Shown one piece after another: positions 3,346-57,749 of a stretch of DNA of 64,000 nt. The DNA comes from Naegleria gruberi. Taxonomy: Eukaryota. How positions within the stretch are numbered: the stretch's first letter is position 1; each line of letters begins with the position of its first letter. The notes under the pieces were generated by a model, which saw only the letters and a list, made by a program, of their open reading frames with translations, did no database searches and was not told the origin of the DNA. Position numbers and translations under genes: made by a program. The stretch lies in the NCBI GenBank assembly GCA_000004985.1, contig GG738857.1; one strand, given 5' to 3'.

Positions 3346-4497
3346 TTGAATAGTAATCTTATGATGGATTGTTTGGAAAGTATTTCCCAAAATTCGAAGG
3401 ATTTATCTTTGATATTGGAAGATGGAAATCTCATGTCCGATCAATTGAAATTGGATCAATTGAGGAATTTGTCAAAGTTAGAGATTGATTACCTGCCTTC
3501 CTTTGTTACCGTGATGAATCCGCATCTAGTTGAGTTGCAAGTTGGAAGTCTTTTGAACAACAATTTCTTTAACAGAACATTGACCAATACGTTGCTTTTG
3601 AAAAGTACATTTTATAATTTGAAAAGATTGGAACTAACCAACGTTGGAAATATGTCAGAAGCTCCTACCTATGTATTTCCCTCTTTAGAATATGTCTATT
3701 GTTTGGATTGTGATTTTGGTAGTGGAATTGATTTCTTTTCGAATAGTACAAAATTGAAGAGTTTAATTTTGATATGGTGTAAATTTAAGATTCTATCAAA
3801 AACTAAATTTCAATGTCAAGGATTGGAAGAATTGAATATTTCCACAACTAGTCCACACAAATTCTTCGATGTTTCCACATTGAAAGGACTACAACTAAGG
3901 AAACTAAATATTTATCCTGTAGGTATCACTGGCGTTAGTCCAGTAACAACAGCTGATCTTTCAGCAATCGAAGAAATGACGAGTTTGGAACATTTAACAT
4001 TTGGAGAATATATTGAGAAATTTTCATTTGCCAAATTGACCAATTTGAAATACCTACAGTTTCGTAAAAGTTTTGCATTTGTAGGAATTCTATCATTAAG
4101 CTCATATGAACACTTACTTCATAATTGTGTCATTTACTTTGACGTTGCAGCATCTGATGTTCCTGTACCTGCTTTTTCAGAAAATGGAAGAGTTATTGTT
4201 AATTCATCCACTTGTCGATTAATTGCTTCCAAATTGAAAGAGCTCAATATTAGTGTGAATGGTGTGAAATTTGTAATAATGACACCAACGTACATTTACG
4301 TTACTTTCAATATGCAATCAAGGAAACAATCTCATTATTCCTATCCTAGTTTTATTCTATTCGAAAGCAAACAACCACACACAATTGTAGCCAGCGGAAG
4401 AAGTTTGGAAAAGAAGATGGAAGTACCAAAAATCACCATTGATTATTTAATGAATTTAAAGTTTGAAACTAATGAAAAAAAATGTGAAATTCAATAA
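3346..4497 (+). CDS. LRR-like protein, paralogue B of the gene at 1198-2531
   Basis: Intact 383-aa ORF, collinear with paralogue A (about 40-50% identity by eye over the C-terminal 300 aa). Confidence 0.6.
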   Translation: MNSNLMMDCLESISQNSKDLSLILEDGNLMSDQLKLDQLRNLSKLEIDYLPSFVTVMNPHLVELQVGSLLNNNFFNRTLTNTLLLKSTFYNLKRLELTNVGNMSEAPTYVFPSLEYVYCLDCDFGSGIDFFSNSTKLKSLILIWCKFKILSKTKFQCQGLEELNISTTSPHKFFDVSTLKGLQLRKLNIYPVGITGVSPVTTADLSAIEEMTSLEHLTFGEYIEKFSFAKLTNLKYLQFRKSFAFVGILSLSSYEHLLHNCVIYFDVAASDVPVPAFSENGRVIVNSSTCRLIASKLKELNISVNGVKFVIMTPTYIYVTFNMQSRKQSHYSYPSFILFESKQPHTIVASGRSLEKKMEVPKITIDYLMNLKFETNEKKCEIQ

Positions 4498-4510
4498 ATT
4501 ACAATGAATA

Positions 4511-6343
4511 TTAATTTTGGAATGGTTGTGGAACAAATCCTGGTTGTTGAGTTTGTACTGGTTGTAAAGTAGAAACTGGAATTGCTTGGAGATAACCACC
4601 TCTACCTCTTCCACCCCTAATAGATAAGCCACCTCTGCCACCCCTAATAGGTAATCCACCTCTTCCACCCCTAATAGGTAATCCACTACCTCTACCACTG
4701 TAAGAATAAGTGCTACAGGTTATTCCTCTTGGCATTGTTCCTTTCGGTTGTTTTGTCCTTTCTGTGTTGGGATCTTTAAATTTTCCATTCTTTCTAGATC
4801 GTGGTCGTGCTTCCTCCAACAAATCATCAACATGTTGTTCATTAAATTCGAATTGAGGAAACTCTGCCCTTACAGAATCAATAATCTTTGCTTTGAACAT
4901 TAGCAAGGCATTGGTGAAAGACTTTCTTGGACCATCACTAAGGAACATGTGAAAAATCTCCTCCTCTGTTAAGGTTGAGTTTGGAAATTTCCACATGTGA
5001 AATTCTTTCCACTTTTGAATCATGAATACTGTAAAATTGGTAAAGATCTCGAGATTTGGTTTGCTCAAATCCAATGCACGTCTCTTCATAATTCTTCCTA
5101 GAACATGTTGATACAAGCTCATAAAATCATTTGTTCTTGGTGTCATTAATTTTGGGTTATTTTTGGTCTGTTTCAGTAATCTGAATTCTCCATGAGCGTA
5201 ATTTCTTTCAAACAGATGGAAGAATAAATTCTTTTCGTCCATTTTGGTTGCCAATCGTATCATTTCTTCCAAAGGTTTGCAGTCAATTTGCAAAGATTTT
5301 TCACTATGCTTAGGGGAGGTCTCGTTGAGTAAATAAAACTTTGTCCATTTGAAAACTTGTTCTGTAAAATCAAGATGAAGACGTTTTTCCATTTGTTTTT
5401 CAAACATTAGTTTCCAGTTTCTAACTTTAGATTTGGAGAGTCTCAATCTGTTGGAATCAAATAATAGAGAGTTCAATTTCATATCTAAACTCTCGAAAAA
5501 TTCAAACTCTTCATCTCCAAATGAAACTACTGGAATTCCTACCTTCTTTACATTAAGCAATGTTTCGTATAATCTCTCAACATTTCTGTGTTGCTTAATG
5601 TAGGAATGCATTGAGGTAGTGTCACCAAATTCCTCCTTTGAAGATAACCAGTGAGGGAAATACTTATTAAGGTCTCTAATAGAATTCTCCAATCTAAAGA
5701 AAACTTTTGATGCAGTAAATTCTGACTTGGGGTTTCGAATTTGTTTCTTCATTTCGCTTTTTTTAGCATAATAGTAAAAATAAACTTGCTCCTTATATTG
5801 TAATTGATTCCATTTCGTTTTCAATTCCTTACTTGTAGATACCAAATCATTCTTCCTATTAACAAACTTTTCCTTTCCATTCGCGTAATTCGAAAACCTT
5901 TCAATTTCATTTCGAATAGCCAAGAAGGTCAACAATTCATAATAAGGACTCGATCTCACCTTCTCCACTTCCATCTCTTTCAAACTAGAAACACCCAACA
6001 TTTTACAACTAATCTCTGAACTGATCAACAATAATTTCTTCACCACTCGATCATTCAAATCCAAAAACAAACAAATGTGAAAATAAATTTCCCAAGGCAA
6101 ATGCGCAAAATCTTCATCATGATCTCCTCGTTTCATAGGAATACTTGTATTTCGTCTGCTCCTGTGTGTAGTTTCAACATTATTCGAATCTTGAAGACCA
6201 AAGAGAATGAAATCCTTCTCTTTCCATTGATTCTTTCTAATATTCTTTCTTTTTTGCTTGTTTTTAATGCCCTGTTCTGAAAGACCAACAAGCCTTCGTT
6301 TAACACCTTTGGGGAGTGAATGGGGAAGGAAGTTTTGAGACAT
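4511..6343 (-). CDS. F-box-like protein with C-terminal Gly/Arg-rich repeats (GGRGGLPIR x4, RGG-box-like)
   Basis: 610-aa ORF. F-box-like segment HLPWEIYFHICLFLDLNDRVVKKLLLISSEIS; C-terminal ...GRGSGLPIRGGRGGLPIRGGRGGLSIRGGRGRGG. Confidence 0.55.
   Translation of the reverse strand: MSQNFLPHSLPKGVKRRLVGLSEQGIKNKQKRKNIRKNQWKEKDFILFGLQDSNNVETTHRSRRNTSIPMKRGDHDEDFAHLPWEIYFHICLFLDLNDRVVKKLLLISSEISCKMLGVSSLKEMEVEKVRSSPYYELLTFLAIRNEIERFSNYANGKEKFVNRKNDLVSTSKELKTKWNQLQYKEQVYFYYYAKKSEMKKQIRNPKSEFTASKVFFRLENSIRDLNKYFPHWLSSKEEFGDTTSMHSYIKQHRNVERLYETLLNVKKVGIPVVSFGDEEFEFFESLDMKLNSLLFDSNRLRLSKSKVRNWKLMFEKQMEKRLHLDFTEQVFKWTKFYLLNETSPKHSEKSLQIDCKPLEEMIRLATKMDEKNLFFHLFERNYAHGEFRLLKQTKNNPKLMTPRTNDFMSLYQHVLGRIMKRRALDLSKPNLEIFTNFTVFMIQKWKEFHMWKFPNSTLTEEEIFHMFLSDGPRKSFTNALLMFKAKIIDSVRAEFPQFEFNEQHVDDLLEEARPRSRKNGKFKDPNTERTKQPKGTMPRGITCSTYSYSGRGSGLPIRGGRGGLPIRGGRGGLSIRGGRGRGGYLQAIPVSTLQPVQTQQPGFVPQPFQN
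4594..4700. repeat. Tandem 27-nt repeat, about 4 units, encoding the PIRGGRGGL repeats of the gene above
   Basis: Units such as ccacctctgccacccctaatagataag / ccacctcttccacccctaataggtaat are directly visible. Confidence 0.6.
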
Positions 6344-9178: not shown

Positions 9179-11313
9179 TTGGTTAATCAATGTGGTACAG
9201 ATGTATACTATTATATGTGGTTCAGCAAGTATTTGATTGTTTATGTGGTTGTTTGTGGATTGGTTGCTTGTGGCTCTCTTTTGCCAACCTATTTGACCAC
9301 CACTGATTACAATGTCTCATTTGGTGACTTTTCTTCAACTAGTATTGCCAACATGAGTATCAAGACCAATGATAAGATTTACGTCTTTTTCCTTGTTACT
9401 ATTGCATTCCCAATCCTTGGTCTTGTCTTTATTTATGGTTTGAATAGATTGTCTAGACAGTTAATCAAGTCAAGAACCAACATTGGTTCCTTGTACACTG
9501 TCATGGTTAATGGAATTTCAAGAAGTGTAAGAGATAGGAAGAAATTATTGGAGGACTTTAAGCAAAGATATGGAGATTGTGTTGTTGATGCCCATTTAGC
9601 TCTTGATCTCAATAATTTGAGTGAATTGGATGAAAAGAGAGAGGATTTGGAGAGGATGTTGAGAGGAGCTGAACGTGAATATGAAAAGAGTGGCCGTAGA
9701 CCACAAATCAAAGTTAAGGGTCTGATGGGATTTTTCGGAAAGAAGGTTGATGCTATTGAAGAATACAGCAAGGCCTTGGAAAGTGTCAATAAGGAGATTA
9801 ACATTCTCAGACTCAATCCAAACAAGACTATTCACGGTACCGGATATGGATTTGTGACCTTCTCAACAATGGATGACGCACAAAGATGTCTCAATGAACA
9901 CAAGGATATCAATTGTTGTTGTGGTATTTCTATTCCTTGGTGGTTATGCTCTCCAAGTGGATGGGGATACGGAGGTATTGAAAGAGCTCCAGAACCAGAT
10001 GATGTTCTCTTTGAAAATTTGAGTATTGGATCAACCAATCGTTGGGTTAGATCATTGATCTCATCTGCTGTTATTACATCCTTCTTGCTTTTGATCTATG
10101 CCATCTCAACAACAGTTTCCTGGTACTATTGGTATAAGGGTCAAAACTATAGCTCTGTAAAAGATTACTTTATAGATACTGATGCTTCCGTTATTGGAGT
10201 TGATACTTTGGCCTTAGTTTTGATGGTTCTGGCCGAGTTGTTGCCTGAAGCCGTCTCACTCACCAATGAAATTGTTAAACCAGTCATTGAAGTTTTGAGT
10301 GACTATGAAAAGCATCCATCAAGAACATCCAGAAGAAAAACCATCCTCAGAAAGACAATTTTCTTTATTACCTTGTCTATTATGATCTTCCCATTCTTTA
10401 TCAGATGGATTAAGGCTGTGTGGGGTGTTAGTATGAATGCAGATTTTCCATTCAACAATTATGCCTATTTTTTCAACTTTATTGGCACTGAAGTGGCTAC
10501 ACTTATTATGGCTTTGTGTACAATTGCCAAATCTTTGGAATATACATTCATGTTTATCATTATAATGGTCAAGTATAGATTCAGTGACAATGGTAATGGA
10601 AATAGGGAATTAGAAAGACTTCCTTTCGATTATGAAGCCAACATTGGAGTCAAGATTGCAATTCTCATGCTAACCCTTCTTTACGGAAGTGCTGTCCCAT
10701 GCATGTTTGCATTCTCCTTAATTTACTATGTGGTTACTTATTATTTGGACAAGTATTTGATTTTATACTTTTTCGAGAAGGCCCCAGACAGTGATGGTAC
10801 TCTAATGAGAACTACTTCAGACACATTGGCTTACTATCTTTCCATCTATCCAATTTTGGTTATTTTCATGATTCCTTCATTGGCTAGCTTATGGTCAACT
10901 TGGCTTATTTACTTGCCAACTATTTTTGTTTTCTACATGGTTGTTCGTATTGTTAGAAATAGAATGTCAAGATCAGAGATGGACATGTTGGTAGTTTCCT
11001 TGAGTAGTATGCCTCATGATGATATTGAAAAACAAGAGGAAGTGGATATTAATGCAGGAGATAGTTTGGAAATGGAGGTTACCGATTCAGCTAGTCCATC
11101 TTCACCAATTTCCATTCCTCAAAGAATTCCAGTCAAGAATGGCATTGCCACATCCTCTATTAGGTCCTTGATGAGCTTTGTTGCTGGTGAGGAACAAGTA
11201 GTTTCCATCTATGATAAGGAAGTTGAGAAACGTCTTGATGTCGATCAAAGAGTATTGGCCTCTCGTTACAGACATCCATACTTGAAAAAGGATAAGAGAA
11301 GAGCTGCATCAGC
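9179..11313 (+). CDS. OSCA / TMEM63 / CSC1-family (DUF221, RSN1_7TM) stress-gated cation channel. The 3' end is lost in the assembly gap. The true start is probably the ATG near 9214 or an upstream exon.
   Basis: Domain order: N-terminal TM helices, then a cytosolic domain (..MVNGISRSVRDRKKLLEDFKQRYG.. and ..KTIHGTGYGFVTFSTMDDAQRC.., an RRM-like PHM7_cyt pattern), then a 7-TM block typical of CSC1/OSCA. Confidence 0.65.
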
Positions 11314-12236
11314 NNNNNNNNNNNNNNNNNNNNNNNNNNNNNNNNNNNNNNNNNNNNNNNNNNNNNNNNNNNNNNNNNNNNNNNNNNNNNNNNNNNNNNN
11401 NNNNNNNNNNNNNNNNNNNNNNNNNNNNNNNNNNNNNNNNNNNNNNNNNNNNNNNNNNNNNNNNNNNNNNNNNNNNNNNNNNNNNNNNNNNNNNNNNNNN
11501 NNNNNNNNNNNNNNNNNNNNNNNNNNNNNNNNNNNNNNNNNNNNNNNNNNNNNNNNNNNNNNNNNNNNNNNNNNNNNNNNNNNNNNNNNNNNNNNNNNNN
11601 NNNNNNNNNNNNNNNNNNNNNNNNNNNNNNNNNNNNNNNNNNNNNNNNNNNNNNNNNNNNNNNNNNNNNNNNNNNNNNNNNNNNNNNNNNNNNNNNNNNN
11701 NNNNNNNNNNNNNNNNNNNNNNNNNNNNNNNNNNNNNNNNNNNNNNNNNNNNNNNNNNNNNNNNNNNNNNNNNNNNNNNNNNNNNNNNNNNNNNNNNNNN
11801 NNNNNNNNNNNNNNNNNNNNNNNNNNNNNNNNNNNNNNNNNNNNNNNNNNNNNNNNNNNNNNNNNNNNNNNNNNNNNNNNNNNNNNNNNNNNNNNNNNNN
11901 NNNNNNNNNNNNNNNNNNNNNNNNNNNNNNNNNNNNNNNNNNNNNNNNNNNNNNNNNNNNNNNNNNNNNNNNNNNNNNNNNNNNNNNNNNNNNNNNNNNN
12001 NNNNNNNNNNNNNNNNNNNNNNNNNNNNNNNNNNNNNNNNNNNNNNNNNNNNNNNNNNNNNNNNNNNNNNNNNNNNNNNNNNNNNNNNNNNNNNNNNNNN
12101 NNNNNNNNNNNNNNNNNNNNNNNNNNNNNNNNNNNNNNNNNNNNNNNNNNNNNNNNNNNNNNNNNNNNNNNNNNNNNNNNNNNNNNNNNNNNNNNNNNNN
12201 NNNNNNNNNNNNNNNNNNNNNNNNNNNNNNNNNNNN
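11314..12236. other. Assembly gap (923 N)
   Basis: n run. The ORF-track entries translated as X across this span are artefacts. Confidence 0.99.
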
Positions 12237-14174
12237 CTCATCATTATCCTCTCCATCTGAAGATCGATTCGTATTTTTCACAAATAAACAGCAATAAATT
12301 GAACAACTCGAGAAACAGAGCAAAACTAAAAAGGTCAACCCTAACACTCCAACCATTCCATATCCAACCTCAATTGGGAATGTGTTAAAAATTGGAATCT
12401 TTGGACTTCTACTATAAATAAGTGGGAAGAATAAACAAATGGCAGAGAAGAGTAGAAAGATGAGTACAATAATCAATGTGCATAGCCCTCCAAAAGCACA
12501 GCACAGAGAATACCAAATATTATCACCTGGTGTTGAAGTTTGCTCAATCACTGCTGCAGGAATATAAATCCCAGAATTGTTACTTGTTGAAAAGGATGAA
12601 AAGTAGCTCGGTATCTTCTTAATTTGAACAATATTCTGATTCAAATCTTGTTGGTGAACTGCTTGTTGCTGCTGCTGACCTTCTTGATTGCCGATTGCTG
12701 CTGCTGTTGCATTAGTGTTAGCTCCATTTCCCTCTTCAAGTTTGTGTTGTTGGTTTGGATTTTCCATTGTATTGACATTCTGGTGTTCATTCTCGTCCTT
12801 TGTGTGAAGTTTGAAAAGTGTTTTAATTCCCTCAAAGTTTTCAGCACTCGTTATATGCAAATAACACAGCAATTGTTCACTCGTATACTTGGACAGCAAT
12901 CTCTTACTTCTATAATAGTCATAGTAACGATAGTTTTGTCTGAGCTTTCTTCTCTTTGATTCCAATTCTTCAACTTCTTGATTATCTATGATATTGTGAT
13001 AATCAAATTCAATTTCAAAATTTGGGAAAAACTTGACTCCAATATCATAAATTGCTTCCTCAAATACCTCGTGATAATGTGCCAGAGTTGACTTTCTAAA
13101 TTTGTGTTTTGGTCTATTCTTAATATTAAATACTATACAAAGGAGAATGCATCCAACAAGTGTAATTGTGAAAATTGCACTCAAAACTATTGAAAAAGTT
13201 CCTTCAGCAACTGCATCTTTTAAAACTACAAAGTAAATGAGAGCTAGTGCCAAAGTACCGACAGCAGCTGCCAAAGTTGAAACACACAAAATGAAAAGGT
13301 AGACATTGACAGATTCGAATATTGAACATTTCATCAATTCATCTTGAGTAATTCGTTTCATCACATTTCCCAATAGCATTAATTCCTTTCTCTGTTTATC
13401 AGTCAAATTCAATGAATGAAGTGAATAAATTATTTGTTGTTGTTGCAAAATGGTCAATCGTGTTCTCAAATGTGCTGGAATTTGTGGAATTTCAGAAAGT
13501 AAATCAAACGAAATTGGTGGAGGATCTTGACTTTTCAACAATTCCAATTCATCAGGTGTAAAATCAAGATCATTATCTAACAAATCATTTTCTGTATCGT
13601 CATCATCATAATCTTCCTTTCGTTTCTTTTTCTTCTTTTTTCCTGAATTTTCTTGTTTTTGATCTACTGCACCTTGTTGCTCAACTGTTGTTGCTGTTGC
13701 TGTTGCCACTACTACACCTGCTAATTGTTGTTGTTGTTGTGGTTGTTGTGGTGATTGAGGCACAGTGGAAGGAGAGGCAACTCTATTTGGTTGTAAAGGA
13801 TGATCATTGGTTGTAATGGGTGGTGAACAGGCAATATTTCCATCATTGTGAATGTTATTGTTGTTGGTACTGCTGTTGTTCGGAATATTGTTCAATTGTA
13901 CTGTCATTTCCTGTTGTTGTTGTTGTTGTTGCAAATTCAAATTCAAATTCAAATTATTAATAGTATTATTATTAGTATTGGAATTAATTTGATTTGGTGG
14001 TAATGAGACAAGTGTTGGTTGATCGAAATTTCTAGTGATGGTTTTTTCGGGAGAGTTATTGTTTATATCTGGTAGGACAACAATAATTTGAGAAGCATCA
14101 TGGTTAGTCGTGGCCACCTCCTCCAATTTGGACTTGTCACTTGCTTGTTCGTTATTGGGATGGAGTTGTGACAT
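12237..14174 (-). CDS. Poly-Q/N-rich multi-pass membrane protein. It starts at ATG 14174 and its C-terminus is lost in the gap.
   Basis: ORF 11160-14174 minus the gap portion. The N-terminus has long N/Q/T-rich tracts (NNNTINNLNLNLNLQQQQQQQ), followed by two hydrophobic multi-helix blocks. Confidence 0.5.
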
Positions 14175-17878: not shown

Positions 17879-18316
17879 AGCTCAAGTAATTTGATTTACA
17901 GTTTCGTTTTCAAAAGAGGATCTTGAAAAAACGGACTTATTTCTTCTGTGTTAGAATACAACTTGGAAATCGTCTCATATTGCTTTGGTAAATTGGAAAC
18001 AAACCAAGAAGACCGTTATTTTTAAAACGGCCGTACATTTACATAAGGTCCGCTAATGATTTTTTTAACAAGACGGTCAACCAGCAAGTCTCAATCAATT
18101 TGCTTCAACTCCAACTCAAATATTAGCGCACGATTAATTATAGCTTCCTACGCAGTATTGTGCACGTGTTGAAAATGTTGTTTTCCTTGATAACGCAATT
18201 ACGTAATGAAATGCATTACTCTCAACCAAAAAAAACAAATTGACAGCTCTCGACAGCAATCATTACAGCATAAAACATTCTCTAAACAACCATTTTACTA
18301 ACAGACTCAAATAAAA

Positions 18317-18828
18317 ATGGTTTCCGATAGTCACTTCCACTCCTCATCCTCCCAGCAGGATTTCCAACAAGTTGTGCAACAATACAAGTTTACCATAGAA
18401 GCAATTTTCGATAACCAAGAAGCAAGAGCTTTGTTTAGAAGCTTTTTGAAGAAGGATTTGAATGAAGGTATGTTGTGATGTTTAGTTTTATTGTTTATTA
18501 ATTACAAATTCTTTACAAATAGAACCATTCCTTTTCTATGAATCTGTTGAAAAGTATAACAAGACAAGACTTGATAAGAATAGATTCGAATTGGCTAGTG
18601 AAATAATAGACAAGTTTATGGTTGTGGGAGCTCAACACGAATTGAATTTGTCAACTACACTGAGGAATGACATTTTGAAATCATGGAAACAAATATACGA
18701 AAAGAATAAGGATTTACCTGACTCTGATTTGATAACGTGTCCAAAAGATTTATTCACTAAGGCCCAAGACATAATTTTCATTGAACTCAAACAAGATAAT
18801 TTCCCAAGATTTGTAAATTCAGAAACTT
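18317..18828 (+). CDS. RGS (regulator of G-protein signalling) domain protein with 2 exons (18317-18467, 18523-...). The 3' part is lost in the assembly gap.
   Basis: MVSDSHFHSSSSQQDFQQVVQQYKFTIEAIFDNQEARALFRSFLKKDLNE|EPFLFYESVEKYNK... matches the RGS-domain consensus (F..FL..E.SEEnL.F...v..Y). Intron GTATGT...AAATAG, 55 nt. Confidence 0.6.
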
Positions 18829-19993
18829 NNNNNNNNNNNNNNNNNNNNNNNNNNNNNNNNNNNNNNNNNNNNNNNNNNNNNNNNNNNNNNNNNNNNNNNN
18901 NNNNNNNNNNNNNNNNNNNNNNNNNNNNNNNNNNNNNNNNNNNNNNNNNNNNNNNNNNNNNNNNNNNNNNNNNNNNNNNNNNNNNNNNNNNNNNNNNNNN
19001 NNNNNNNNNNNNNNNNNNNNNNNNNNNNNNNNNNNNNNNNNNNNNNNNNNNNNNNNNNNNNNNNNNNNNNNNNNNNNNNNNNNNNNNNNNNNNNNNNNNN
19101 NNNNNNNNNNNNNNNNNNNNNNNNNNNNNNNNNNNNNNNNNNNNNNNNNNNNNNNNNNNNNNNNNNNNNNNNNNNNNNNNNNNNNNNNNNNNNNNNNNNN
19201 NNNNNNNNNNNNNNNNNNNNNNNNNNNNNNNNNNNNNNNNNNNNNNNNNNNNNNNNNNNNNNNNNNNNNNNNNNNNNNNNNNNNNNNNNNNNNNNNNNNN
19301 NNNNNNNNNNNNNNNNNNNNNNNNNNNNNNNNNNNNNNNNNNNNNNNNNNNNNNNNNNNNNNNNNNNNNNNNNNNNNNNNNNNNNNNNNNNNNNNNNNNN
19401 NNNNNNNNNNNNNNNNNNNNNNNNNNNNNNNNNNNNNNNNNNNNNNNNNNNNNNNNNNNNNNNNNNNNNNNNNNNNNNNNNNNNNNNNNNNNNNNNNNNN
19501 NNNNNNNNNNNNNNNNNNNNNNNNNNNNNNNNNNNNNNNNNNNNNNNNNNNNNNNNNNNNNNNNNNNNNNNNNNNNNNNNNNNNNNNNNNNNNNNNNNNN
19601 NNNNNNNNNNNNNNNNNNNNNNNNNNNNNNNNNNNNNNNNNNNNNNNNNNNNNNNNNNNNNNNNNNNNNNNNNNNNNNNNNNNNNNNNNNNNNNNNNNNN
19701 NNNNNNNNNNNNNNNNNNNNNNNNNNNNNNNNNNNNNNNNNNNNNNNNNNNNNNNNNNNNNNNNNNNNNNNNNNNNNNNNNNNNNNNNNNNNNNNNNNNN
19801 NNNNNNNNNNNNNNNNNNNNNNNNNNNNNNNNNNNNNNNNNNNNNNNNNNNNNNNNNNNNNNNNNNNNNNNNNNNNNNNNNNNNNNNNNNNNNNNNNNNN
19901 NNNNNNNNNNNNNNNNNNNNNNNNNNNNNNNNNNNNNNNNNNNNNNNNNNNNNNNNNNNNNNNNNNNNNNNNNNNNNNNNNNNNNNNNNNNNN
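18829..19993. other. Assembly gap (1165 N)
   Basis: n run. Confidence 0.99.
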
Positions 19994-20008
19994 TTGAATT
20001 ATTGTAAT

Positions 20009-20989
20009 TTACCACATTTCAGCCAGTCTGAAATTGCTTGCAAAGTAAGTTGTAATAAGACCTCCCCAAACATGTGGACCATAATAAGTAGATTGAATGT
20101 ACCACCTATCTGGATTCTTATAAGCAGCAGGAATATTATTTGCAGTGTCAGCAACAACTTGACGAAGTCTTGGCTTGACATCCTTAGAAAAGACAAGAGT
20201 TTGTCCCACAGTTGGATAGGTCAATTCATAGGAAGCAATCACATCATCATAACCCCATGTATTTGTAGTATTAGTGGCAGCTCCATTGAAAAACCAATTC
20301 TTATTTGGAACACGTGATGGACTAACTGAGGCATAATGCAAATTGAGTTGATAGAAAAGTGTCAAACTTGGAGCATCATAATTCTTCAACACAAATGAGG
20401 TAATGAAAGTAGCTTGAGTAATACATGAAGAAGCAACTTGTTGAATGTAATAGGGTCTTACATTTATGGTATGTAATAATTGCTTTCCATTATTGGCAAG
20501 TGGACCTTCAATTGCTGGAACGAAAGGGGCAGTATCATACGTATTGGAAGTGGTTGGTTCAGCAAATAAATTGGCTTCCACACCACAACCTAACAAATTA
20601 CCATTCAGGGCTAGCTCAATAGTATCATTTCCTGGAGTGAAAACAACACGAGAGCTTGGATTAGCTACAGAATATTGATTATTGAAAGCATTGAGTTCGT
20701 AAGCATTTTCCCATTGAGCAACATGCCAATTTGAAACACCAGGGGTTCCAGGAGTTTTCAAATTTCTATTGTAAACTTTGGCGCCCATCTTGTAACCTGT
20801 GGCTTTAGGTACAAGGTCATTGTAAGTGACAGCCAAAACCAAGACAACTTGATAGAGGAACACTGTTGTAAAGATTAAGAGAAATCTTGATGAATATTTG
20901 GATAACATTTTTTTTTTGAATGGAAATTTAGAGATCTTTAAAGCTGATGTTAAATAGCTTTTCGAAACTTGCCGAATCGTTCGTGTCAT
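20009..20989 (-). CDS. Secreted protein of unknown family, about 300 aa. The probable start is the internal Met of MLSKYSSRFLLIFTTVFLYQVVLVLA.
   Basis: Intact 326-aa ORF with an N-terminal signal peptide, and Gly/Asn/Trp-rich with no TM helix. No family recognised by eye. Confidence 0.5.
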   Translation of the reverse strand: MTRTIRQVSKSYLTSALKISKFPFKKKMLSKYSSRFLLIFTTVFLYQVVLVLAVTYNDLVPKATGYKMGAKVYNRNLKTPGTPGVSNWHVAQWENAYELNAFNNQYSVANPSSRVVFTPGNDTIELALNGNLLGCGVEANLFAEPTTSNTYDTAPFVPAIEGPLANNGKQLLHTINVRPYYIQQVASSCITQATFITSFVLKNYDAPSLTLFYQLNLHYASVSPSRVPNKNWFFNGAATNTTNTWGYDDVIASYELTYPTVGQTLVFSKDVKPRLRQVVADTANNIPAAYKNPDRWYIQSTYYGPHVWGGLITTYFASNFRLAEMW

Positions 20990-53513: not shown

Positions 53514-56500
53514 ATGACAAAACTTGTTTCTTGCCTTGCCACGGCCATCAAACTCGGAGTGGTGAGCACGTTTGTGTGCTCTTTTGTTTTGTTTCATATT
53601 TATTTCTTTTTGGAGAGATCTCCACCAGCTAATACAAAGCATTTTGATGATATGAATACTAATCCTTTAAATTTTGCTGATTTGAATTTATTTTCCATTC
53701 ATGATGAGAGTAGTATTGTGAAGGAAGGTTCATCGTCATCACCCGGAAAGAATAGAAGAAGACTTGTTCAACCAAAGAGCTTGAGAAAAATTGCTCTTGA
53801 TGAAATCGGAACTGTAAATTCAACCAAAGTTGTGAATGATGGTATGTAATATTTGTACAATAATTTTCAATTAATAATTAATAATTAACAATAATATAAT
53901 ATACAATGCAATATTCATCAATGAATAACAATAATTTTGGAATACTTGGAAAAATCTTCATCATGTGGATTAACAACAGATGACGAAAAAACATATTATA
54001 CTATTTTCCAAATTCATGGAACTCCTGGATCTAGACGATGGAGGTATCCAGTTGATCATCACTTTGTGAGGACTTTCGGAGGAGACAAAAAGTTGAGAAT
54101 TCTCAGTCTTGATAGACCTGGTATTGGTCAATCTACTCCAATAATATCTAGTATTGACTCGGAAGGTAATCCTGTCTATAATTTGGAACCTTTCAATGTG
54201 GATTATTATGAAGCTAGTGCTTTGGACCTTTTATATGTTGTGAGAAAGTTGAGATTAAAGCACTTTTCACTCTTTGCTTATTCTCAAGGTGCTGCTCATG
54301 CTACAATGCTTTCACACTATTTGGAACAATTAAAGAAGAGAGAACGTGGTGAAAAGGTAACTCATGCTCACTTGAAGAGCACTGAAAGATTCCACAATGA
54401 CTTGATGACCAAGATTTTATTGTCAAAGGATTCCGAAAAGTATTGGACTTTTGAAAATGGAGTTTCAAACTATACATCATCTACTGAATGGTCATGGAAA
54501 GATGTTACCATCGACAGAGTTGTCTTGATGGCACCACAAGGTTTCTATTCAGAAAAGGTCAGACAAGCTCTCTTGAAAGAGCAAGACATGACCATTCCTG
54601 AGCACAAGAGATGGTCTTCAAACCTTCATCAAATTTATTCTTTCCACAATTATCAACCACCACTCGGAACTAATATTGTTCATGCTGTATACAAGATGGT
54701 TTCACAATTGGGATTTATCACTAATATCAAATATTGGGAAGAAAATATGAAATTCATGCTTGATCCTTTGGGAAGAGATTCATTCATTTTCCATGATGAA
54801 GCTACTGGATGGAAGAAGGCTTTTAACAATACCATGATTGATACCTACAGATTTACTACCATGACTTTCCTTGTAGAAGTTTATAATAGTTATTATTTCA
54901 CTGAAAATTATGGACCTAACTTTGATATTTCCTTGAAGAATATTCCAACATGGATTTTGAAAGCTGAGGATGATATTCTTGTTCCAATTGAAGCTTTTAA
55001 TACCTTTGTTGAAAAGGTTTGCACCAATAAGGAAACTTGTAATGTCACTGTTGCTTCCAACACTACCCATTTCCAAATTTTCAAGAATTATTACACACAA
55101 TCTATTCAACACCTTGTGAAGGGAGTTTTTGGAGAAAGTGTCAGCCTTAGAAAGCCAAGAAGAAAGATTATTGTTATTGGTAGTGGTCTTGCTGGCTTGA
55201 CAGCTACTCTCGAATCTGCCTACACCTACGATCAAGATGTCGTTCTCATTGAAAAGGAACCTAGACTTGGAGGAAACAGTGCCAAGGCAACCAGTGGTAT
55301 GAATGCTATCCAAACAACAACACAAAGAAACGTTCTCGTCTTTGATTCATATACTCACTTTTGGAATGATACTATCAAGTCTTTCACAGGAGGAAAGGTC
55401 TTGTCTACCCTCAAGGAAGCTAGAAGAATCATTAGAAATCCAAAGAATAAGAAGAAGGTTGAAGGAGAGGAAAATTTAATTACAGAAAATTCTTGGAGAA
55501 TTTTGGAAACTCTTGTCAAGGATTCCAAGCCAGCCCTCCAATTCTTACAATCATTTGATGTGAAAATGGATGTTGTTTCCCAATGTGGAGGCCACTCAAA
55601 GCCAAGAACTCACAGAAGCATTAACAAGAGTGACAAACCAATTAACATTGGAAGTGATATTATTTCCAAGCTCTCTGCTTTTATTAGAGAAAAATTGGCT
55701 GAGCGTGTTGTCATCAAGACTGAACATCATGCCATTCAATTAATTTCTGAAGAAAATGATCTTGGAGAAACCATTGTCAAGGGTGTCAAGGTTTTGAACA
55801 TTAAGGAAAATACTACTGAAACAATTATGGGAGATTCTATCATTTTGGCAGCTGGTGGTTATGGTCAAGATAGAGATGGTTATTTGAAGCAATTCGCTCC
55901 ACACTCTGTCAATTTACCATCAACTAATGGTTTGTGGGCAACAGGTGATGGTATAAAGATGGCTGTCAGAGATGTAAACGCATCCTTGATTGATATGGGA
56001 GAAATTCAAATTCACCCTACTGCCTTTGTTGATCCAGCCAATCCTACTGCAATGACATTAATTCTCGCTCCAGAATCATTGAGAGGTTATGGTGCTATTA
56101 TTGTCAATCAAGAGGGTAAGAGATTTGTCAATGAATTGGGTACAAGAGATGAAGTCAGTGATGCCATCTTTGAAAATTGTGGAAGGAAGGAAATTATCCT
56201 CACGTTACTGCCTACATGATTATGAATGAATTTGTTATGAAATCATTTGGTGAAAGCTTGACCTCCTTCTATGCCAAGAAGGGTCTCATTCGTAAATATG
56301 AAAACTTTGAAGATTTGTGTCAAAAGGAAGAATTGAACATGTCTGCCAACTTTTGTGCCAACCTCGAAGATACCATTATTGATTATGATTATTCAGTCGA
56401 TTATAGAAGATCAGATCCTAACTATAAGGATTCATTTGGAAAGACAGTTTTCCCATCTAAATTCAATTTGGAAAAGAGTAAGGAAACTACTCCATTCTTT

Positions 56501-56731
56501 GTGGCAAGAATTACACCTGCTGTTCACTACACTCAAGGTGGTCTCTTATTCAACAATAAGGCACAAGTTTTGCGTAGAAAGACTCAAGATACAAACGAAG
56601 TAATTAGAAATCTCTATGCTGCCGGTGAAGTCACTGGTGGATGTCATGGTAAGAATCGTTTGGCAGGTAACAGCTTGTTAGAATGTGTAGTTTTTGGTCG
56701 TATTGCTGCCTCAGAAGCTGCCCAAGAATAA
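53514..56731 (+). CDS. Fusion of an alpha/beta-hydrolase-like domain with a soluble FAD-dependent fumarate reductase (flavocytochrome/OSM1-type). There is a possible 5' signal-anchor exon at 53514-53841 and an apparent frameshift near 56175-56200.
   Basis: Hydrolase part: HGTPGSRRW...[13 protein letters not shown]...[13 protein letters not shown] part: [17 protein letters not shown]...[15 protein letters not shown] ... [34 protein letters not shown]. ORFs 53937-56219 (frame 0) and 56177-56731 (frame 2) overlap within the ggaaggaaggaaatt run. Confidence 0.6.
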
Positions 56732-56812: not shown

Positions 56813-57749
56813 CTAACACACGACAATTGAAATCAAGATCATTCCAAGAAACATTGCAATAGACACCAATGAAGAATCAAATAGTCCACTAGTTCCACTG
56901 CTGATATTCCTCGTAACAAACGAACCATACTTGTACGTTTCTCCAAACAATCGAATGGCACAATGTGTACAATTCTGCTTGTTATTATTCAACCAATAAA
57001 TCAAATCAATTGCATCAGCTATTATTCCCTCAACTGTTCCATCCATCACTTCCTGGAATATGCCATCATAATTCTCCTTATAAATAATGGATGCATTTGG
57101 AAAGGTGGCTTGACCCAAAGCAACAAAATAAGATCCCTTCAGAACTGTAAATGCTGGTGAAGGAGCTTTTTGTAAATCTTGAATTGAGGAATAGTTTAAG
57201 GCATGTGCCTTATTCGAAAGTAAAACTCCAGTGGAAGAACTTCCATATCCACAATTAAAATTAACTTTTCGTGCTCTTTCCTGTGAATAAATTGTATTAC
57301 TCGTGACAACATCACACAATCCACTGTCGACTGCTCTTGTCAATGTGTCAAAATATCCCAAAATGGAAGTATTAATAATGATATGATTGGCTTTCAATTT
57401 GGCATCTGGATATTTGGAATTTAAAGTGGAAACTAGTAAGTCACCTGCTTGTTTATAGAAATTTCTCCAGACATCTGTTGGTTCTTCATAACAAATGTTT
57501 AGTTTAGTTTTGGTTGTTGGAAAGGGATTCGAATTGGGATAAGAAGTTGTTCTTTCGACACAAGAAGGGACTTGGAAGGCTACTCACGACATCTGACATT
57601 GCTTTATCAATTGCTTGATAAATGTCATTCGACATGTATTGAGTTTCGGATAATGAGGGAGTAATATAGTCTGCAGAAACTCGGGGAGAAGTGAGTAGTA
57701 CAATAAATGTAAAGCAATAAAACATCAACGACAAGCAAAATAGTTTCAT
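56813..57749 (-). CDS. Secreted bacterial-type solute-binding-protein family 3 (periplasmic-binding-protein type II) domain protein with a hydrophobic C-terminal tail. It has at least 2 exons, and the intron boundaries are unresolved.
   Basis: Exon 1 is ORF 57504-57749, with signal peptide MKLFCLSLMFYCFTFIVLLTSPRVSA. The downstream frame is open from about 57540 to 56813 (...YKQAGDLLVSTLNSKYPDAKLKANHIIINTSILGYFDTLTRAVDSGLCDVVTSNTIYSQERARKVNFNCGYGSSSTGVLLSNK) and matches the SBP_bac_3 pattern. The two frames differ, so an intron or frameshift must lie near 57520-57560. Confidence 0.5.

Follow-up and report, generated by a model that had tools for sequence, protein, structure and literature searches.

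The 64,000-nt stretch of Naegleria gruberi DNA analysed here (contig GG738857.1 of assembly GCA_000004985.1; hereafter the window) holds, between positions 56,813 and 57,749 on the minus strand, a signal peptide in one reading frame and a bacterial-type solute-binding protein (SBP) domain in another. The questions raised by this locus are whether the two pieces form one gene, what separates their frames, and what kind of protein the gene encodes. Taken together, the results make it likely that the locus is a single-exon N. gruberi family gene, broken as assembled by a 38-nt deletion, and that its product is a probable secreted, glycosylphosphatidylinositol (GPI)-anchored, amino-acid-binding clamshell.

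The interrupted reading frame

The ATG at 57749 begins an 81-codon open reading frame (ORF) that starts with MKLFCLSLMFYCFTFIVLLTSPRVSA, a typical signal peptide, and ends at 57506-57504. The second frame, which runs without a stop from 57583 to the TAG at 56815-56813, ends in LVSIAMFLGMILISIVVC and contains all the peptides quoted in the first-pass annotation of this DNA. In the window, the binding domain is thus left with no in-frame Met until far downstream and with no signal peptide. The only close relative is an orthologue on a 3.6-kb metagenomic contig (L001, ENA ERZ929261), which has the same neighbours and encodes a protein that is 98% identical. In L001, the gene is one uninterrupted 325-codon ORF that joins both pieces, and the earlier assumption that they belong to a single gene is thereby borne out. 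By superposing the two sequences, 38 nt of L001 (CTTAGAATGGATCTCCATATTCCAGTCTCTTTCTGTCC, encoding about LEWISIFQSLSVP) are found to be absent from the window at 57578-57580. With the missing segment, about 13 conserved codons are lost, which the model folds as helix 50-57. AMSDVVSSLEWISIFQSLSVPFQVPSC of L001 aligns residue for residue with GVTEMVQTASWRKLFSDLNLPFNIPQC of N. fowleri and with the other family members, a nearly invariant Pro and Cys included, and in N. fowleri a single exon of 1014 nt makes up the gene FDP41_012477. From the conservation among homologues, the modelled helix and the single-exon relative, it follows that the interval is coding, that the 38 nt are ancestral, and that the window carries a frameshifting deletion. 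The first-pass annotation had called for an intron or a frameshift near 57520-57560; the frameshift stands, and the intron does not, since the interval is coding in the homologues.

The possibility that a short spliceosomal intron joins both frames and leaves the gene intact deserves consideration because the window does contain suitable signals: an in-frame GT-AG pair at 57597/57552, which would delimit a 46-nt intron (GTCAGA...GAAAG), longer pairs as well, and a perfect-looking GTGAGT donor at 57587. The 38-nt indel is, moreover, not a multiple of 3, as expected of intronic sequence. However, no AG acceptor for the GTGAGT donor would retain the first strand of the domain, and the pair 57597-57552, the sole GT-AG pair that retains this strand, removes the nearly invariant Pro66 and Cys68 together with helix 50-57. 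The corresponding interval of L001 is open and encodes a family-conserved motif, the N. fowleri relative has one exon, and the spliced product is absent from a collection of 15 billion proteins. We therefore regard an intron as very improbable. Every frame-joining GT...AG pair was enumerated, and all such models were rejected, as the homologues show the interval to be coding.

Compared to L001, the coding sequence of the window copy differs by 10 synonymous and 5 non-synonymous substitutions and by three 3-nt indels in the tail; the gene was evidently, from such comparison, under purifying selection until recently. The lesion disrupts the frame within coding sequence for which an intact orthologue exists, as is characteristic of a unitary pseudogene. 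The copy as assembled represents either a gene inactivated recently (a pseudogene or null allele) or a fault of the assembly. Over the shared 3.6 kb, the window and L001 differ by 35 mismatches and two frame-breaking indels, both of them missing in the window. The second indel is a single A after 56182 (GGAAAGG to GGAAGG, in an AAA run), approximately 1.4 kb from the 38-nt deletion. It lies in the adjacent fumarate-reductase-like gene (53937-56731, plus strand; Abhydrolase_1 and FAD_binding_2), which is 99% identical in L001 and is spread over two frames in the window, so that the FAD_binding_2 profile is split at the break into positions 2-309 and 354-414. Two lesions 1.4 kb apart could reflect a degenerate haplotype, a local assembly error or a real loss of function. 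Accordingly, the frameshift may be an artefact or a variant of a single haplotype, with living NEG-M keeping at least one intact functional copy laid out as in L001. The otherwise undamaged coding sequence, with twice as many synonymous as non-synonymous changes, is in keeping with this, and the second frame-breaking indel nearby in a conserved gene suggests local sequence-quality or degenerate-haplotype trouble. On the other hand, a clean loss of 38 nt is atypical of base-calling error, and the search for a second N. gruberi allele was negative: L001 is the only close relative, and no further close alleles turned up among JGI metagenome contigs. We consider an intact copy in NEG-M possible but the less likely outcome.

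Fold, predicted ligand site and probable surface attachment

The first-pass annotation described a stand-alone, bacterial-type SBP family 3 domain, as opposed to the split S1/S2 arrangement of ionotropic glutamate receptors (iGluRs), and both parts of this description hold. In the HMMER comparison with Pfam SBP_bac_3 (PF00497), the window domain gives a partial match at 57101-57352 with E=2e-4 and 21.5 bits, which is below the gathering score of the model, and the orthologous protein (P0001) scores 19.6 bits. Within the family, 9 of 20 members match SBP_bac_3 at E<=0.01 (best, 9.8e-8), and the gathering threshold is passed by the paralogue P0005 (32 bits) and by P0131 (27.1 bits). The NCBIfam models for LAO, GrrP, cystine, ArtJ and GlnH binding proteins match the window domain at E=4e-4 to 4e-3. 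Against sequences of the Protein Data Bank (PDB), single-sequence phmmer found the reconstructed proteins AncCDT-1, an amino-acid binder (E=5.8e-7), and AncQR (3.8e-5), and a 20-member family profile sharpened these matches to 2.2e-18 and 2.1e-14, followed by an Enterococcus faecium glutamate SBP (6.2e-13) and GlnBP (4.7e-6). The top eukaryotic iGluR ligand-binding domain reached only 1.5e-3 with the same profile, and Lig_chan or Lig_chan-Glu_bd was matched by none of the 20 members at E<=0.01. In addition, the binding domain is contiguous in the 325-aa protein. In iGluR S1S2 and in bacterial GluR0, a pore/transmembrane module is inserted between the lobes, whereas no channel module separates the two halves here, and the family sequence is clearly nearer to transporter SBPs than to eukaryotic iGluRs. 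In an alignment-based model, two alpha/beta lobes and a hinge form a clamshell that superposes on solved SBPs; this model was used in place of a single-sequence AlphaFold model of the window domain, whose predicted confidence (pLDDT 37) made it unusable. The domain is homologous to the solved family-3 SBPs and has the type II periplasmic-binding-protein (PBP) fold.

In GlnBP and HisJ, an Arg and a Thr residue clamp the alpha-carboxylate of the ligand. The equivalents of the AncCDT-1 binding residues are well kept in the Naegleria family: Arg85 is Arg in 32/32 members, Gly130 is Gly in 23/30, Thr131 is Thr or Ser in 28/30, and Asp170 is Asp in 21/26. The window copy has all four, namely Arg (in SQER), Gly-Ser (in KGSY) and Asp (in IADA). 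The alpha-amino-acid-binding motif and the role of Asp170 are those described in 10.1101/157495. As judged by alignment, a predicted alpha-carboxylate clamp (Arg; Gly-Thr/Ser) and a predicted alpha-amino clamp (Asp) are thus shown to be conserved in the family. The intact mature protein would close on a free amino acid or a similar small carboxylate. The ligand would then be reported to a membrane partner, for chemosensing or feeding control, or passed to a transporter; for signalling through a partner, there are precedents in the GPI-anchored EhVFT of Entamoeba and in those bacterial SBPs that serve chemoreceptors.

A clamshell of this kind might instead be an SBP-derived enzyme resembling cyclohexadienyl/arogenate dehydratase (CDT). 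In fact, some of the strongest matches in sequence and fold are to CDT and to ancestors reconstructed for it, and an Asp (19/26) takes the place that the general acid Glu173 has in CDT. According to 10.1101/157495, Glu173 acts as the general acid and Lys100, Asn128 and Asn133 belong to a hydrogen-bond network. In the family, however, Asn128 is replaced by Tyr, Phe or Leu, Asn133 by Tyr or Phe, and Lys100 is variable. The best match, AncCDT-1, is itself a non-catalytic amino-acid-binding ancestor, and an extracellular GPI-anchored site would be odd for an enzyme of aromatic-amino-acid biosynthesis. An enzyme role is consequently unlikely on present alignments, and we give it only a very small chance. 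The conserved Asp (19/26) corresponds to residue 253 of P0001, in the window motif IADAIDL, and is atypical of bacterial amino-acid binders; it may touch the side chain of the ligand, act as a structural cap or take part in catalysis.

The N-terminal secretion signal and the hydrophobic, GPI-signal-like C-terminal tail that had been noticed in the first reading are both present by sequence shape. The N-terminus of the orthologue is hydrophobic (Kyte-Doolittle 12-residue mean 2.2), as it is in the full-length family members, and cleavage after VSA is predicted by the -3/-1 rule. Behind the signal peptide, helix 33-48 of the N-terminal extension is modelled in the orthologue at pLDDT >90. At the other end, the window protein closes with NISSGTSGLFDSS-LVSIAMFLGMILISIVVC directly before the stop codon. 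A tail with a 14-residue hydrophobic window (Kyte-Doolittle mean >2.0) followed by 0-6 residues is found in 22 of the 23 members examined, and, as in nearly all family members, the tail of the window protein reaches the last residue without cytoplasmic residues. The signal peptide, the small residues of the omega region, the short spacer and the terminal hydrophobic stretch are the features by which GPI-anchored proteins are recognised. The protein is therefore a probable GPI-anchored surface protein, and the mature form would be held on the outer face of the plasma membrane by its anchor.

Several points weigh against this overall picture. The window sequence by itself stays below the SBP_bac_3 gathering score of 26.4 bits. 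The GPI assignment is made from sequence shape, and a C-terminal tail anchor is a possible alternative. The equivalents of AncCDT-1 Thr80 and Gly78 are not conserved, and the bacterial lobe-1 beta-hairpin that carries side-chain contacts is unrecognisable, apparently replaced by the N-terminal extension, so that something other than a standard amino acid may be bound. The neighbouring genes, one fumarate-reductase-like and the other an ORF without a Pfam match, give no hint of a binding partner. Finally, the adjacent 1-nt frameshift may point to trouble with the assembly or the haplotypes in this region.

The Naegleria/Willaertia family and its origin

When the window domain was the query, a homologue search gave the metagenomic orthologue alone, and with the family alignment it gave only 3 proteins and missed the NCBI Naegleria members. 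The family became apparent when 1.84 billion representative proteins were scanned exhaustively with HMMER: 125 relatives scored E<1e-3, of which 43 scored E<1e-10. All named relatives come from N. gruberi, N. fowleri, N. lovaniensis or Willaertia magna, and the others are metagenomic; there are thus many paralogues across four species of two genera. In the databases, they are called 'hypothetical', 'predicted protein' or, automatically in UniProt, 'solute-binding protein family 3/N-terminal domain-containing protein'. The full-length members measure approximately 280-340 aa and share one layout, in which a signal peptide is followed by an N-terminal extension, the clamshell, a stretch rich in Ser, Gly, Ala and Asn, and 14-20 hydrophobic residues running to the last residue. 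The extension carries family-specific motifs (F.QAIDAA..., W..., FP[IV]P.C) and two helices modelled at pLDDT >90. Six cysteine columns are conserved, and there are several NxS/T sequons. By these sequence features, the members are predicted to be secreted, cysteine-rich proteins and make up an uncharacterised multigene family. Searches of the literature for Naegleria together with solute-binding protein, for project PRJEB11402, and for five family locus tags or accessions found nothing; the architecture and the lineage-specific expansion are accordingly undescribed in the literature searched, and the fold and the general idea are already known.

Some members deviate from the common layout or bear on its genomic arrangement. 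P0005 (N. gruberi NAEGRDRAFT_68554; 462 aa) has two tandem copies of the family domain and no signal peptide, and in P0015 (W. magna KAL9652493; 557 aa) an ABC-transporter-like N-terminal part is joined to a protein of the family. Each of the two resembles a gene model that was merged or given a wrong start, and together they hint that paralogues lie in tandem arrays. In N. lovaniensis, C9374_002535 and C9374_002538 (P0018 and P0014) lie three locus tags apart on one 689-kb contig, a spacing that suggests local clustering of family paralogues. A distant branch, represented by P0131 and P0045, has 22-24% identity and the same layout of signal peptide and hydrophobic tail. It is encoded on contigs of approximately 6 kb (L003-L005; JGI 3300057222, JGI 3300057245 and Logan SRR29605744), with the gene at about 4254-5210, near a Band_7 gene; these contigs recur across 24 collection blocks. 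The closest named N. fowleri relative, FDP41_012477 (L002; VFQX01000013.1, 6001-7014), is not syntenic with the N. gruberi locus. It is flanked by NIT, CRAL_TRIO and NUDIX genes, not by the fumarate-reductase-like gene, and from this lack of synteny it may be a paralogue rather than an orthologue.

The nearest relatives outside the family are bacterial GlnP-type permease fusions (four to five SBP_bac_3 domains with BPD_transp_1), and the identity to bacterial proteins is only approximately 22-30% over about 90-145 residues. An ancient bacterial origin is plausible from this bacterial affinity in sequence space. The first-pass annotation had proposed a candidate horizontally acquired nutrient or chemosensory binding protein. 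The gene is not an isolated acquisition; it belongs to an expanded, eukaryote-adapted Naegleria/Willaertia family, so that any bacterial origin must be old. A recent transfer or a contamination, in which a bacterial ABC (ATP-binding cassette)-transporter binding protein would still serve as a transporter receptor, could appeal to the same bacterial relatives, the GlnP-type fusions and the polar-amino-acid SBPs. However, the bacterial identity is low and there are many paralogues in two genera; the proteins carry a eukaryotic signal peptide, the six conserved Cys, the NxS/T sites and the GPI-like tail; and the G+C content of the gene (0.357) is host-like, with N. gruberi genes on its flanks. 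The low identity, the paralogues, the eukaryotic additions and the host-like composition therefore rule out a recent arrival as far as such evidence can, and we attach almost no weight to it. Neither an ABC permease nor an ATPase gene stands beside the window gene, whose neighbours are the Abhydrolase_1 and FAD_binding_2 gene and the ORF without a Pfam match, and there is no ABC linkage at the N. fowleri locus either; this is weak evidence, since eukaryotic genes are not in operons.

Compared to bacterial family-3 SBPs (GlnBP/GlnH, ArtJ, LAO/HisJ, the SBP domains of GlnPQ, AncCDT-1 and AncQR), with which the identity is 13-19% in structure alignments, the Naegleria proteins begin with a eukaryotic signal peptide where the bacterial ones have a periplasmic or lipoprotein signal. 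They add the two-helix extension of approximately 55 residues, the six cysteines, the N-glycosylation sequons and the GPI-signal-like tail, and they lack both a linked ABC permease or ATPase and a recognisable lobe-1 hairpin with its side-chain contacts. A known parallel is EhVFT of Entamoeba histolytica (PMC12965686), which likewise combines, on an amoeba surface, a signal peptide, a clamshell and a C-terminal GPI signal without a transmembrane signalling domain. Its knock-down affects motility and phagocytosis (PMC12965686, published in 2026). Unlike the Naegleria proteins, EhVFT is a type I PBP (ANF_receptor/LIVBP, resembling class C G-protein-coupled receptors) and not a type II SBP of family 3; it is a single Entamoeba gene and not an expanded family, and it belongs to Amoebozoa, not Heterolobosea. 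PfVFT1 of Plasmodium falciparum (PF3D7_0606800; PDB 5jkq) shows 8% identity in structure alignment, was not detected in sequence searches with the Naegleria family, and has no identifiable membrane anchor reported. More speculatively, the family might represent an undescribed class of eukaryotic chemoreceptor, in which GPI-anchored type II amino-acid-binding clamshells would steer chemotaxis or feeding on bacteria through a membrane partner, in N. fowleri as well. The family would then parallel the type I EhVFT by convergence, and turnover among its paralogues, with the broken window copy as an example, would reflect rapid adaptation of the sensory repertoire. We offer this only tentatively, as an idea that we think has the smaller chance of being right.

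Layout of the locus and its significance

The positions of the features are collected in the table.

Table 1. Features of the interrupted solute-binding-protein gene, in window coordinates
Feature	Position	Strand	Evidence or remark
Start codon ATG	57747..57749	-	Orthologue L001 has a 325-codon intact ORF from the same ATG
Signal peptide, residues 1-26 (MKLFCLSLMFYCFTFIVLLTSPRVSA)	57672..57749	-	Hydrophobic N-terminus; predicted cleavage after VSA
Start of N-terminal extension, residues 27-57, including the conserved IYQAIDKAM helix	57579..57671	-	ATG frame kept; aligns with the family F.QAIDAA motif
Deletion junction, 38 nt absent	57578..57580	-	Frame shift versus orthologue
Premature TAA stop in the ATG frame	57504..57506	-	81-aa product as assembled
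Rest of the coding sequence (FQVPSC...IVVC), open, in another frame than the ATG	56816..57577	-	98% identity to orthologue P0001
Bilobed type II periplasmic-binding-protein (SBP family 3-like) domain	56912..57505	-	Profile, fold and ligand-motif evidence
C-terminal hydrophobic tail (LVSIAMFLGMILISIVVC), preceded by small-residue SSGTSG	56816..56869	-	Probable GPI-attachment signal; alternatively a tail anchor
Stop codon TAG	56813..56815	-	

The window as a whole is gene-dense, with a G+C content of about 0.33. Three of its ORFs are identical to the N. gruberi proteins XP_002679622, XP_002679511 and XP_002679612, which identifies it as nuclear DNA of this species; tblastn found no further family members in it, and it contains no tRNAs. 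Two other regions of the window stand out. The block 18001-20000 has a G+C content of 0.139, against approximately 0.33 elsewhere, and is covered by long overlapping ORFs (18591-19997 on the plus strand and 18819-20015 on the minus strand); Tandem Repeats Finder gave no array in this block. In the region 9179-14174, opposite strands carry two ORFs (9179-12388, plus; 11160-14174, minus) that each exceed 1000 aa and overlap by approximately 1.2 kb, and a third ORF of 315 aa lies inside. At least one of these overlapping ORFs must be spurious or of low complexity.

For annotation, these results mean that the locus should be treated as a frameshifted gene and not be given an artificial intron; the fumarate-reductase-like neighbour has the same problem. 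In general, the study of stand-alone PBP clamshells on the surfaces of free-living and pathogenic amoebae is only beginning. The heterolobosean amoebae, including the brain-eating N. fowleri, appear to have an expanded set of bacterial-type amino-acid binders equipped with a secretion signal, disulfides and a probable lipid anchor. The members of this family may be regarded as candidates for sensors of nutrients or prey and for surface antigens.
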